Shown here: one piece after another, positions 3,001 to 9,000 of the stretch
Layout: the number at the start of each line of letters is the position of its first letter
Position numbering within the stretch: position 1 is the first letter of the stretch
Origin: a virus
Lineage: Duplodnaviria; Heunggongvirae; Uroviricota; Caudoviricetes
DNA length: 19,942 bases
Reading direction: 5' to 3' (one strand)
IMG/VR virus record: IMGVR_UViG_2879748301_000007
Made by a program: the position numbers

Positions 3001-6000
3001 CCCATTGAAGCGATGTGTCAGGTATTTGGTGTATCCAGGAGCGGTTATTACAACTGGGTACAGCATGAACCCTCAGACAGAAAACAAAGTGATGAGCGGT
3101 TAAAACTGGAGATTAAGGTGGCACATATCCGCACTCGCGAAACATATGGAACCCGGCGGCTCCAGACGGAGCTGGCAGAGAATGGCATCATCGTTGGTCG
3201 TGACCGACTGGCACGTCTTCGTAAGGAGCTGAGGCTACGCTGTAAGCAGAAACGCAAGTTCAGAGCGACTACGAACCCGAACCACAATCTGCCAGTTGCG
3301 CCAAATCTGCTGAACCAGACGTTCGCTCCTACAGCACCAAATCAGGTCTGGGTGGCGGACCTGACGTATGTTGCCACACAGGAGGGATGGTTGTACCTCG
3401 CTGGCATCAAAGATGTTTATACGTGCGAAATTGTCGGCTACGCCATGGGAGAGCGCATGACAAAAGAGCTGACAGGTAAAGCCCTGTTTATGGCGCTCAG
3501 GAGCCAGCGCCCACCTGCCGGGCTAATCCACCACTCTGATCGAGGTTCACAGTACTGCGCATACGATTACCGGGTCATACAGGAGCAGTCTGGTCTGAAA
3601 ACATCAATGTCGCGTAAAGGTAACTGTTACGACAACGCTCCGATGGAAAGCTTCTGGGGAACGCTGAAAAATGAGAGCCTGAGCCACTATCGTTTTAATA
3701 ACCGGGATGAAGCCATCTCAGTAATACGGGAATACATTGAGATTTTCTACAATCGTCAGCGTCGTCACTCTCGTCTGGGGAATATCTCCCCGGCAGCCTT
3801 CAGGGAAAAATATCATCAGATGGCTGCTTAAAAAAAGAACAAATGGTAGTGTCCGCTATTGCCAGTACACCTCATATTGGCTACGTAATTAAAACAGAAA
3901 ATAAAGAAACCCCATTCACTGTAGTTGATATCGACGGTCTATCAGGAAACTTTAAAACTCTTGTTGAAGGTGCCACAAAAATGTGCCTAGTTTACATCGG
4001 AAATAATCTGCCCGCAGAAAAAAAGCCGAATTTCTGGCAAATCTGATTGCAATGAAATTAAAAGGTGAAATCTGAAAAAAAGAAAGCCTGCACAGTGTGC
4101 AGGCCTGAGTGAAGAACCTGGGACATTTATTCATCACTCGCAGTAATTTTAATCTGAGTTGAGGTTAAAAAACAATGAGCACAAAACCACTCTTCCTGTT
4201 ACGGAAAGCGAAAAAATCATCCGGTGAACCTGACGTCGTCCTGTGGGCAAGCGACGATTTTGAATCGACCAGCACCACTCTGGACTATCTGCTCGTTAAG
4301 TCAGGTAAAAAACTGAGCAACTATTTTAAAGCTGTTGCCACAAATTTTCCTGTCGTTAATGACCTTCCCCCTGAAGGTGAGATCGATTTTACCTGGAGTG
4401 AACGCTATCAACTCAGCAAAGACTCCATGACATGGGAACTAAAACCGGGAGCAGCGCCAGACGACGTTCACCACCAGGATAATGCTCAAGAAACCAAAGA
4501 ACTGGCGGGAGGCCAGGAAGAAAACGCGCAGGCAGACGCCCACGAGGATTGCCAGGATTGCGAAGTCTCTGTAGCCACTTTGCGGTTCACACAGCGTCTT
4601 CTGCACATTTTTACGTATGCTGCCGGGGATCTGAAATACCTGCATCATGCCACCCGTGAACAACGCAAACACATTACTGCTCTTGAGATGGATCAGGAAA
4701 ACAGCTATGTCCAGAATCTGCTGTTGGCCATACGCGGCATGGCAGAACCGACAACTCTGGATAATGCCGCCCTGCTCCGCCTGACTGATGCAATTAAGGC
4801 TGAGGTGTACTGGCAATAGCGGACACTACCATTTGTTCTTTTTTTAAGCAGCTATCTGATGATATTTTTCCCTGAAGGCTGCCGGGGAGATATTCCCCAG
4901 ACGAGAGTGACGACGCTGACGATTGTAGAAAATCTCAATGTATTCCCGTATTACTGAGATGGCTTCATCCCGGTTATTAAAACGATAGTGGCTCAGGCTC
5001 TCATTTTTCAGCGTTCCCCAGAAGCTTTCCATCGGAGCGTTGTCGTAACAGTTACCTTTACGCGACATTGATGTTTTCAGACCAGACTGCTCCTGTATGA
5101 CCCGGTAATCGTATGCGCAGTACTGTGAACCTCGATCAGAGTGGTGGATTAGCCCGGCAGGTGGGCGCTGGCTCCTGAGCGCCATAAACAGGGCTTTACC
5201 TGTCAGCTCTTTTGTCATGCGCTCTCCCATGGCGTAGCCGACAATTTCGCACGTATAAACATCTTTGATGCCAGCGAGGTACAACCATCCCTCCTGTGTG
5301 GCAACATACGTCAGGTCCGCCACCCAGACCTGATTTGGTGCTGTAGGAGCGAACGTCTGGTTCAGCAGATTTGGCGCAACTGGCAGATTGTGGTTCGGGT
5401 TCGTAGTCGCTCTGAACTTGCGTTTCTGCTTACAGCGTAGCCTCAGCTCCTTACGAAGACGTGCCAGTCGGTCACGACCAACGATGATGCCATTCTCTGC
5501 CAGCTCCGTCTGGAGCCGCCGGGTTCCATATGTTTCGCGAGTGCGGATATGTGCCACCTTAATCTCCAGCTTTAGCCGCTCATCACTTTGTTTTCTGTCT
5601 GAGGGTTCATGCTGTACCCAGTTGTAATAACTGAGGTGTACTGGCAATAGCGGACACTACCATTTGTTCTTTTTTTAAGCAGCCATCTGATGATATTTTT
5701 CCCTGAAGGCTGCCGGGGAGATATTCCCCAGACGAGAGTGACGACGCTGACGATTGTAGAAAATCTCAATGTATTCCCGTATTACTGAGATGGCTTCATC
5801 CCGGTTATTAAAACGATAGTGGCTCAGGCTCTCATTTTTCAGCGTTCCCCAGAAGCTTTCCATCGGAGCGTTGTCGTAACAGTTACCTTTACGCGACATT
5901 GATGTTTTCAGACCAGACTGCTCCTGTATGACCCGGTAATCGTATGCGCAGTACTGTGAACCTCGATCAGAGTGGTGGATTAGCCCGGCAGGTGGGCGCT

Positions 6001-9000
6001 GGCTCCTGAGCGCCATAAACAGGGCTTTACCTGTCAGCTCTTTTGTCATGCGCTCTCCCATGGCGTAGCCGACAATTTCGCACGTATAAACATCTTTGAT
6101 GCCAGCGAGGTACAACCATCCCTCCTGTGTGGCAACATACGTCAGGTCCGCCACCCAGACCTGATTTGGTGCTGTAGGAGCGAACGTCTGGTTCAGCAGA
6201 TTTGGCGCAACTGGCAGATTGTGGTTCGGGTTCGTAGTCGCTCTGAACTTGCGTTTCTGCTTACAGCGTAGCCTCAGCTCCTTACGAAGACGTGCCAGTC
6301 GGTCACGACCAACGATGATGCCATTCTCTGCCAGCTCCGTCTGGAGCCGCCGGGTTCCATATGTTTCGCGAGTGCGGATATGTGCCACCTTAATCTCCAG
6401 TTTTAACCGCTCATCACTTTGTTTTCTGTCTGAGGGTTCATGCTGTACCCAGTTGTAATAACCGCTCCTGGATACACCAAATACCTGACACATCGCTTCA
6501 ATGGGAAATTGTTGTCGCCATTGTTCGATTAACGCGTATTTTTCAGCGACTCCTGTGCAAAATACGCTGTTGCTTTTTTTAATATATCGCGCTCAAGGCG
6601 AGCTTCATTTAACGCCTTACGCAGTTGCAGAATTTCAGATTCCAGTTCAGCCACCGTGCGGGAACCAGGAGTACCGAGCCCTTTTCTGGCGGCGGTAACC
6701 CATTGTCCTAAAGTGCCTTCAGGAAGGGATAATCGGGAAGCGCCTTCACTGATCGAAAGTTGATTTTCAAGAACCGTTCTGACAGCTTCGGCTTTGAACT
6801 CTTTAGAGTAACGTTGGGTTTTTCTGCTCATTATTAGCTCCTTCTGATGCCATTTTATTTCAGGAAGGAGTGTCCGTTAAACTCAGGCTACCTCAAACCG
6901 CTCCTGGATACACCAAATACCTGACACATCGCTTCAATGGGAAATTGTTGTCGCCATTGTTCGATTAACGCGTATTTTTCAGCGACTCCTGTGCAAAATA
7001 CGCTGTTGATTTTTTTAATATATCGCGCTCAAGGCGAGCTTCATTTAACGCCTTACGCAGTTGCAGAATTTCAGATTCCAGTTCAGCCACCGTGCGGGAA
7101 CCAGGAGTACCGAGCCCTTTTCTGGCGGCGGTAACCCATTGTCCTAAAGTGCCTTCAGGAAGGGATAATCGGGAAGCGCCTTCACTGATCGAAAGTTGAT
7201 TTTCAAGAACCGTTCTGACAGCTTCGGCTTTGAACTCTTTAGAGTAACGTTGGGTTTTTCTGCTCATTATTAGCTCCTTCTGATGCCATTCTATTTCAGG
7301 AAGGAGTGTCCGTTAAACTCAGGCTACCTCAATATGCTTTCCTTCCAGGTAAACCTCGTGAACAATGTTATCAGTAGTTGCAACAGTGGCTTCATAATTG
7401 GTGTTCATGTTTTTCTCCTTAATTAAGGTTGAGCGAATCCCTGCCATTGCTGGCATAAATTCAGTTTCGAATAGTCAGTTAATTAAAGTTCGTGTGCCAT
7501 CTGGTCTTTTTCGGCGCAGATTTCACTACAATATTTGCGTTTCTTTTTCCTCATCATGGTTCCGTGCATGTAAATAAGTTCAGCAGTGTAAGCCTTATCA
7601 GGGCTTACTTGTCTGTCACACAGGCCATAAGCACAGGGAATTAAATCGGGATCACCTTTCTACTGGAGGTTTTTTTTGATTATCCATAACAAATTTTTGA
7701 TTCCGGTGTGTGTTATGGTCTGCTGAGGTGCAGAGGTAAAACAATAATCAAGCATAGGGTTCATATCCGTAGCTCCATTTTTATTTTAAAGAAAGTAATT
7801 GTTCCACAGTCATATTTTTAATTGCGCCCCGGTTAACAAGAGTCCATCCCTGTTTTTCCAGATAAAACCGGAAAGTCTCCAGGGTACAGACCAGTGCGCC
7901 ATCAGGAACGGTTTCGGTGAATTCGACATTGCCGAATTTGTCGAAGTGAACAACCAGAGTGCGACCATCACCCGGAATCATCTTGTCTGCAGGTGGGGTG
8001 TTATTCTGGCGCAGTTCGGCCTCCATGCGGTCGAACTCAGCAATGTAGGCTTCCTTGAATGCGGCGGCTTTTTTGCCAGTGAAGCCCATCACCAGGAAAA
8101 CGAAGCCGTTTTTGGTGATTTGGTACATTGGGCGTTTTTCGCCTTTGGCGTCGGTATAGGTGACGGGCTTAAAATTAAGCCGGTTAAACTCCGGCGAGCA
8201 TTCGAGAGTTTCGATCTTCTGAATAACGTTTTTGTGCATTTTCCGGAAGAACTCCGCAACCGCAACAGACGTAGTGACAGCGCGACCATTTTCGATGGTT
8301 GCGTCAGGGTGAGAAAGGGTAAGGATAGTAGCCATGATGGCAGCCTCGATAGTCAGTTTAAATGACTCACCACCAGAGGTAGCAATCTCATGGGTGGTGA
8401 GACGCACAGGGTTGCTACAACCGGTGACTACCGAAACCGGCCAGCCTTGCGGCTGCCCTGCACGCCCCACCATAATCTGAATGTGGCTGTGCTTGACGCA
8501 TAAAAAAACCGCCTGAGCGCGGTTATGCGCAGTAGTCATCGTCGGGGTAGCAATCCCGGCACCCGTTTTATGAGGTGCAGGTGCACTATAATTCCACCCG
8601 TTCTGGTTTTCAATAGCTACATTCAACATTTTCTCTTTCCTTTCATCACCGAAGTGAACTTTGTTGATGCGGTGCCTGGTGCCTCCAGGTGACGTTAACC
8701 AGTTAACAATTACAGTTGGCTTTCCCACCCAAACCAATAAGGACTAACATGACTTTTAACTGTGCCGCGTGCGCATAGCCGCATTCACCGCATCACAAAA
8801 TTCACTTTAAAAAGGGCGGACATCAGCCAGCAATTAAACCGATGCCGCCAACTGGTACTTCACACAGCAATGTCGTTATTTACAACCGGAAGCGCACTCC
8901 CACCATTTAAATTTCACAGACAAGACCGACTCTTTATGGATACCGGAAATGCGCCTTCGTGTTGTGCCCGGTTTTATTTCACCACTTCCGGGCTTTGGTG

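Follow-up and report, generated by a model that had tools for sequence, protein, structure and literature searches.

Anatomy and likely origin of an IS600 nested within another IS600

The window analysed here is a 19,942-nucleotide stretch of DNA from the tailed-phage record IMGVR_UViG_2879748301_000007 of IMG/VR, and its subject is a pair of copies of the insertion sequence (IS) IS600, one of which sits inside the other. The initial annotation had described an outer IS600 split into two parts whose lengths total 1264 bp plus 3 bp, with a complete 1264-bp IS600 between them in the same orientation and an AAC at either edge. To derive the architecture we combined a repeat finder with an exact base-by-base comparison of the IS600 copies in the window, numbering IS positions from the TGAGGTGTAC end. 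The exact comparison agreed with the split, and both the intervening element and its two AAC flanks were verified (Table 1).

The intact nested IS600

The two outer parts add up as expected for a single element interrupted by a 3-bp duplication (831 + 436 = 1267 = 1264 + 3). Joining 4801-5631 to 6899-7331 restored a 1264-bp element with five mismatches to the inner copy (99.6% identity), at IS positions 53, 770, 775, 942 and 1224. The inner copy opens with TGAGGTGTAC... at 5632 and closes with ...GGCTACCTCA at 6895, termini that are the same in the other copies. AAC is present once, at IS positions 829-831, in each of the inner, the reconstituted outer and the third copy (2611-3874), which bears out the initial annotation's statement that an uninterrupted copy has a single AAC. 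When the outer segments were aligned against 2611..3874, as had been proposed, they reconstituted one IS600 with AAC duplicated. The choice of that copy as the comparison was usable, but it lies in the opposite orientation and needs to be reverse complemented, and it is identical to the inner rather than to the outer copy.

Guest and host share one orientation, and the third copy is opposite to both. The repeat finder returned direct repeats at 4800-5099 and 5631-5930 and at 6460-6759 and 6896-7195; inverted arms pair 2611-3874 with 5632-6895 (1264 nt), 3044-3874 with 4801-5631 (831 nt) and 2611-3046 with 6896-7331 (436 nt). With one and the same element as guest and host, oriented alike, the structure has four ends of IS600 and extended direct repeats (831 and 436 bp).

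Table 1. Coordinates of the IS600 copies, their genes and the adjoining prophage segments in the window.
Feature	Position	Strand	Remarks
Third IS600	2611..3874	+	opposite in direction to the nested pair; identical to the inner copy (0 differences); flanked by ATG on the left and TAT on the right
Inverted segment, 926 bp	3875..4800	+	95.5% identity to Rac-like prophage L001, 7576-8501
Small prophage gene, 3' part	3875-4046		within the inverted segment
recE 5' fragment	4175-4800		Pfam Exonuc_VIII; open reading frame (ORF) enters the IS, stop at 4819
Outer IS600, right-end (IRR-proximal) part	4801..5631	-	IS positions 1-831; 831 nt, 3 mismatches to the inner copy
Left AAC of the 3-bp target-site duplication	5629..5631	.	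GTT in transposase sense
Inner complete IS600, 1264 bp	5632..6895	-	100% identical to 2611-3874
Inner orfB	5675-6493	-	272 aa, HTH_21 and rve
Inner orfA	6529-6831	-	100 aa, Pfam HTH_Tnp_1
Slippery site TTAAAAAAA	6574-6582	-	inner copy
Right AAC of the 3-bp target-site duplication	6896..6898	.
Outer IS600, left-end (IRL-proximal) part	6896..7331	-	IS positions 829-1264; 436 nt, 2 mismatches to the inner copy
Outer orfA	6965-7267	-	in the left-end part, with the slippery site and the first 11 orfB codons
Small prophage gene, 5' part	7332..7456	-	abuts the left end of the outer IS600

IS600 belongs to the IS3 group of the IS3 family; it was first described in Shigella sonnei and is multicopy in Shigella, enteroinvasive Escherichia coli (EIEC) and certain Shiga toxin-producing strains of E. 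coli (STEC). The three copies in the window were 99.1-100% identical over 1264 bp to elements that RefSeq annotates as 'IS3-like element IS600 family transposase' in genomes of E. coli and on Shigella plasmids, and the same range was obtained against 'IS600 ORF1/ORF2' of pCP301 (AF386526). The inner copy was 100-99.6% identical to annotated IS600 on Shigella plasmids. On the RefSeq and GenBank annotation of these near-identical elements, we assign all three copies to IS600. The element is 1264 bp long and has imperfect terminal inverted repeats (TGAGGT...ACCTCA, of the form 5'-TG...CA-3'); its ends, TGAGGTAGCCTGAG... and TGAGGTGTACTGGC..., are identical at 24 of the first 45 positions, including TGAGGT and GGACACT. 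The 3-bp target duplications seen for IS600 were AAC for the inner copy, CTA for a copy in the Rac-like prophage L001, CAA for one in E. coli FDAARGOS_943, within a related prophage (L002), and, for the ancestral insertion as reconstituted below, TAT. Length, termini, the 100-aa orfA, the 272-aa orfB, the 385-aa frameshift product and the 3-bp duplication all match IS600, and the element itself is no different from it: the inner copy represents one allele, common to the neighbouring copy, and the outer copy carries five substitutions.

A -1 shift at TTAAAAAAA is predicted to keep the inner OrfAB open over 385 aa, a length shared with the 'programmed frameshift' product of RefSeq, and this protein scored 413.8 bits against NCBIfam NF033516 (IS3 family transposase), whose cut-off is 160. 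As judged from its reading frames, the inner copy retains an intact OrfA, an intact orfB and the capacity for the predicted frameshifted OrfAB. The host was cut after orfB codon 11, between SRSG and YYNW, at about residue 124 of the 385-aa OrfAB. The 3' 260 orfB codons of the outer copy sit in 4801-5631, where the ORF 4844-5647(-) reads ...YYNWVQHE... to the orfB stop. In its nested state the outer frameshift product is 126 aa long (about 124 native residues) and ends upstream of the HTH_21 and DDE (rve) domains. OrfA and both ends of the outer copy are intact, and in the rejoined outer copy OrfAB is open over 385 aa. The outer copy would thus no longer be able to make its own transposase, yet would keep both of its ends.

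The substitutions of the outer copy include OrfA A87S / OrfAB S87I, just 3' of the slippery heptamer, and M383I. The first of these is a C>A change at window position 7010 (IS position 942), directly 3' of the slippery A7 run, which gives OrfA A87S and alters the first OrfAB residue after the shift (S87I). This change might affect frameshift efficiency, a question that is moot because the outer copy is interrupted.

Sister strains, transposition and alternatives

Ten S. flexneri loci were collinear with the window, such that 1-5631 and 6896-16086 mapped onto one continuous stretch with a 3-bp overlap. Flank identity of these loci reached 99.96-99.98% in the best cases, and sisters without the insert differed from the window by only 1-3 substitutions over about 15 kb of flank. 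L004-L013 and L024-L029 had the outer IS600 intact, with a single AAC, at the chromosomal position it has in the window, and in all about 18 closely related S. flexneri loci were collinear and carried it uninterrupted. In a k-mer check of the 30 loci that were fetched, both nested junctions (CCCAGTTGTAATAACTGAGGTGTACTGGCAATAG and its counterpart spanning 6895/6896) were absent from all 30, and the four outer junctions were present in about 15-18 S. flexneri loci. The chimeric 214-aa product that runs from the recE fragment into the outer IS (4175-4819) was found as an exact sequence in many S. flexneri chromosomes, including AE014073, a record that 38 papers cite along with strain 2457T, and GCA_002950215.1 (S. 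flexneri 2a ATCC 29903), where its context is identical to that in the window.

Because these sister loci hold an uninterrupted outer IS600 with one AAC, the inner copy reads as a recent, strain-specific transposition, and the nested insertion as a derived state, specific to a strain or lineage. With identity extending over 1264 bp and an empty site in sisters, the nested structure is not a product of chance. The proposal of an IS-into-IS insertion was thus upheld by related S. flexneri chromosomes in which the outer IS600 is uninterrupted at this very position, a single AAC is present and both nested junctions are lacking. The further suggestion of recent IS600 activity found agreement in an insert with no differences from 2611-3874, in near-identical sisters without it, and in a junction found in no other collection searched.

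Together, these data make it very likely that an IS600 copy transposed, in the same orientation, into positions 829-831 of a resident IS600 in an S. flexneri chromosome and duplicated AAC. As part of this best explanation, the window belongs to an S. flexneri ipaH island that has become fused with the remnant of a Rac-like or lambdoid prophage, and the resident IS600 is located between the recE fragment and ydaE/rha. Transposition in the IS3 family has been studied in IS911, IS2, IS3 and IS150 and follows a copy-out-paste-in route via a circle with abutted ends. By analogy, OrfAB would join one IS600 end to the other to form such a circle, and the circle would integrate with a 3-bp duplication while the donor stayed in place. 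Since the donor is left in place on this route, it should be a copy with the sequence of the insert. The copy at 2611-3874 is adjacent, 1.76 kb from the insert, and has that very sequence, and it is therefore the simplest candidate donor. Its allele is found at the same place in sister strains L006, L008, L011 and L013, and a copy identical to the insert occurred in only one of 884 plasmid records with IS600, an S. flexneri plasmid.

In favour of a strain-specific insertion, the junction as a contiguous sequence was absent from 5,426 complete E. coli genomes and 72,556 plasmids (80-mer BLAST), and an exact scan with junction 34-mers gave 0 matches each in species-representative genomes and JGI metagenomes. 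Several points weigh against this reading. The protein lookup turned up no other carrier of the junction, the 267-aa ORF 4844-5647(-) not being on record. The nested form is known from assembled sequence, which leaves an assembly artefact a small formal probability. The copy-out-paste-in steps are taken from other IS3-family members and are inferred for IS600. As donor, 2611-3874 is a candidate and not a proven source, as a 100% identical copy is also on one S. flexneri plasmid record and other chromosomal copies are possible donors. Finally, the substitutions of the outer copy are mosaic among strains, so that identity between copies is shaped by gene conversion and is an imperfect clock.

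A more novel reading of the nested pair is that self-insertion was not random. It might reflect a preference for very short hops from the identical copy 1.76 kb away, or for the AAC site in the element's own transposase gene, with self-targeting acting as a brake on copy number; or the four-ended unit (2531 bp, with end combinations of 2095 bp and 1700 bp) might move as a composite by means of the inner transposase. The same junction was found nowhere else in the collections searched, so nothing points to a hotspot, and we regard these possibilities as very improbable. Very improbable too is an assembly artefact, in which reads of several IS600 copies were mis-joined in a repeat-rich genome. 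Three near-identical 1.26-kb repeats within 4.7 kb would invite such an error, and the junction is in no other public sequence searched. However, what transposition leaves behind, and a mis-join does not, is a whole element with exact termini inside a perfect 3-bp duplication, as seen here; moreover, each of the five variable positions, to either side of the insert, shows one allele in the inner copy and another in the outer copy, and the repeats were therefore neither collapsed nor mixed. It is likewise very improbable that unequal crossing-over or tandem duplication between IS600 copies created a nested appearance: homologous recombination between IS600 copies does operate at this locus, as the inversion and the mosaic substitutions indicate, but the order 1-831 / 1-1264 / 829-1264 is beyond a partial tandem duplication of one element and would need two independent breakpoints coinciding within 3 bp, the insert differs in allele from the host sequence to its left and right, and IS600 insertions elsewhere likewise show a 3-bp direct repeat bordering a complete IS.

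Some candidates for further carriers of the junction were set aside. The 80-mer BLAST matches with at least 80% coverage, in 11 E. coli genomes and one S. boydii plasmid, consisted of two separate pieces over 300-550 bp. In each of these, the IS600 right end and positions ~792-831 lay within 300-550 bp on one strand, which implies internally deleted or rearranged IS600 copies rather than the junction studied here. When alternative starts of 237 aa and 146 aa were tried as junction markers, the sole matches were truncated IS600 copies unrelated to this one (L014-L019). With the outer orfA variant, 10 further places were found, none of them nested.

An older inversion and other events at the locus

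In addition to the nested insertion, the flanks of the IS600 copies indicated an earlier rearrangement. Flanked by GGC and ATA, the outer copy shows no duplicated target of its own. The ATA at 7332-7334, which flanks its left end, is the reverse complement of the TAT at 3875-3877, which flanks the right end of the copy at 2611-3874. When the TAT target was rejoined, it gave a 47-nt exact match to a stretch that is uninterrupted in the related prophage L002 (position 8074). Likewise, the reverse complement of 7332-7456 joined to 3878-4046 gave one ORF that aligned with a 91-aa protein of the Rac-like prophage L001 (7502-7777). As the crosswise flanks rebuild an intact target, 3875-4800 must have been inverted between two IS600 copies, and this older IS600-mediated inversion explains why the outer copy lacks a duplication of its own. 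The inverted state is common to all the collinear S. flexneri loci, and the inversion therefore predates the nested insertion.

In the sequence of events we favour, an ancestral IS600 would have entered the small prophage gene and duplicated TAT. The 926-bp segment would then have been flipped when this copy recombined with a second IS600 that lay inverted at the recE junction, leaving TAT beside the right end of 2611-3874 and ATA beside the left end of the outer copy. Under a simple inversion, the flanks should match crosswise in both pairs, but they do so for TAT/ATA and not for ATG/GGC. A DUF4376 tail-fibre-assembly gene, the neighbour of ipaH, has its start codon directly against the left end of 2611-3874. 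Taken with the ATG/GGC mismatch, this argues that the ipaH island became joined to the prophage (recE) through at least one further rearrangement associated with IS600.

An alternative, which bears on these surroundings only, is that one-step intramolecular transposition of the inversion type, by a single IS600 into TAT, produced both the inverted segment and the second copy. Intramolecular replicative transposition predicts a TAT/ATA split between inverted copies, and the match of only one of the two flank pairs, with ATG and GGC unpaired, fits a parent copy that already lacked a duplication. On the other hand, the IS3-family elements IS911, IS2 and IS3 are established to move via an excised circle, giving simple insertions and no replicative inversions, and it is on this account that we rate the one-step model lower. 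The two inverted copies also differ at five sites, though later gene conversion could have introduced these, and recombination between inverted ISs is the usual cause of such inversions in Shigella. We consider the one-step model unlikely, and retain inversion by recombination between two IS600 copies.

As in other IS-mediated inversions in Shigella, the flipped segment lies between two inverted IS600, with one half of the target duplication beside each. This inversion differs in being very small (926 bp between the copies) and in lying inside a decayed prophage, and it therefore has no evident phenotypic consequence. A recE|IS600 junction shared with O26-type E. coli was considered and rejected: in those strains the IS600 is placed 271 bp deeper in recE, between CTA duplicates of its own, and so represents an independent insertion.

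On the left side of the window, positions 1-1812 hold an ipaH-type type III secretion system effector gene (leucine-rich repeats and an NEL E3 ligase) whose start lies 15 nt beyond the window edge. The whole of 1-2610 was 98.4% identical to an EIEC O121 chromosome, in which tail-fibre genes continue. On the right side, a full IS2 lies at 9086-10416, and a 281-bp IS2 end fragment, inverted and 99% identical, lies at 17682-17962. This fragment directly abuts (17962/17963) an IS66-family element at 17963-19942 that is annotated elsewhere as ISSfl3 and whose TnpB and 533-aa transposase run off the end of the window. ISSfl3 beside the IS2 fragment is probably a second IS-into-IS insertion, with its far side beyond the window. 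An IS911 copy (IS3 family) at 16214-17462, encoding OrfA of 112 aa and OrfB of 279 aa, lies just downstream of a hok-like gene; its name comes from the annotation of 99.9% identical copies on Shigella plasmids.

The locus has been hit repeatedly by different extra events in other strains. In L006 and L007 (14935-17633, equivalent to about 10367-10376 of the window), an IS66-family element (TnpA, TnpB and a 523-aa transposase) sits inside IS2; the flanking alignments overlap by 10 bp, and the same site is empty in the window. In L021 (CP034931.1, 3437-5781), a second complete IS600 directly follows an outer copy whose last 156 bp are missing, and 121 bp of the recE fragment are gone as well. 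L026 has an IS911 inserted in the recE fragment (5107-6355), and L004, L008 and L011 share a 27-bp in-frame deletion (~11100) in the outer IS600 that leaves a 376-aa product. The five variable sites of the outer copy (53, 770, 775, 942 and 1224) are variously combined in the orthologous sister copies (L004-L013, 10627-11890): L005 is without 53, L013 is without 770, and L007 has 958 in place of 770 and 942. These mosaic alleles suggest gene conversion among IS600 copies or assembly polishing errors. Outside this locus, in E. coli from poultry and other sources, a 2.5-kb place annotated as IS30 plus IS600 matched the IS600 query in several pieces; by its annotation and match pattern, this place looks like an IS30 nested in IS600, conserved across many genomes.

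An ordinary event and what it records

Expansion of IS600 has been documented on a wide scale: it belongs to a set of five ISs that have expanded in every Shigella species, and it makes strains differ substantially from one another (PMC7373316), and it is amplified in some STEC lineages (PMC9397093). The event described here is already known in kind, since nested ISs and IS600 expansion in Shigella are both well documented, and it is an ordinary one for an IS-rich pathogen. Like nested ISs in Shigella and E. coli chromosomes and pINV plasmids, it consists of a complete IS, with its own duplication, in a host whose halves rejoin exactly; unlike them, guest and host are here the same element in the same orientation.

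Beyond bookkeeping, the insertion has little significance. It inactivated one IS600 transposase gene, and the direct repeats it added (831 and 436 bp) can recombine back to a single hybrid element, which could feed mosaic IS600 alleles among strains. Short-read IS-mapping tools would miss the insertion because both junctions fall inside IS sequence. As a clean marker that can be dated, it nevertheless records that IS600 is still active in one lineage of S. flexneri, and it could be of use in strain typing. With three IS600, IS2, IS911, ISSfl3, one inversion and differing events in sister strains, the locus illustrates how ISs reshape the prophage remnants of Shigella.

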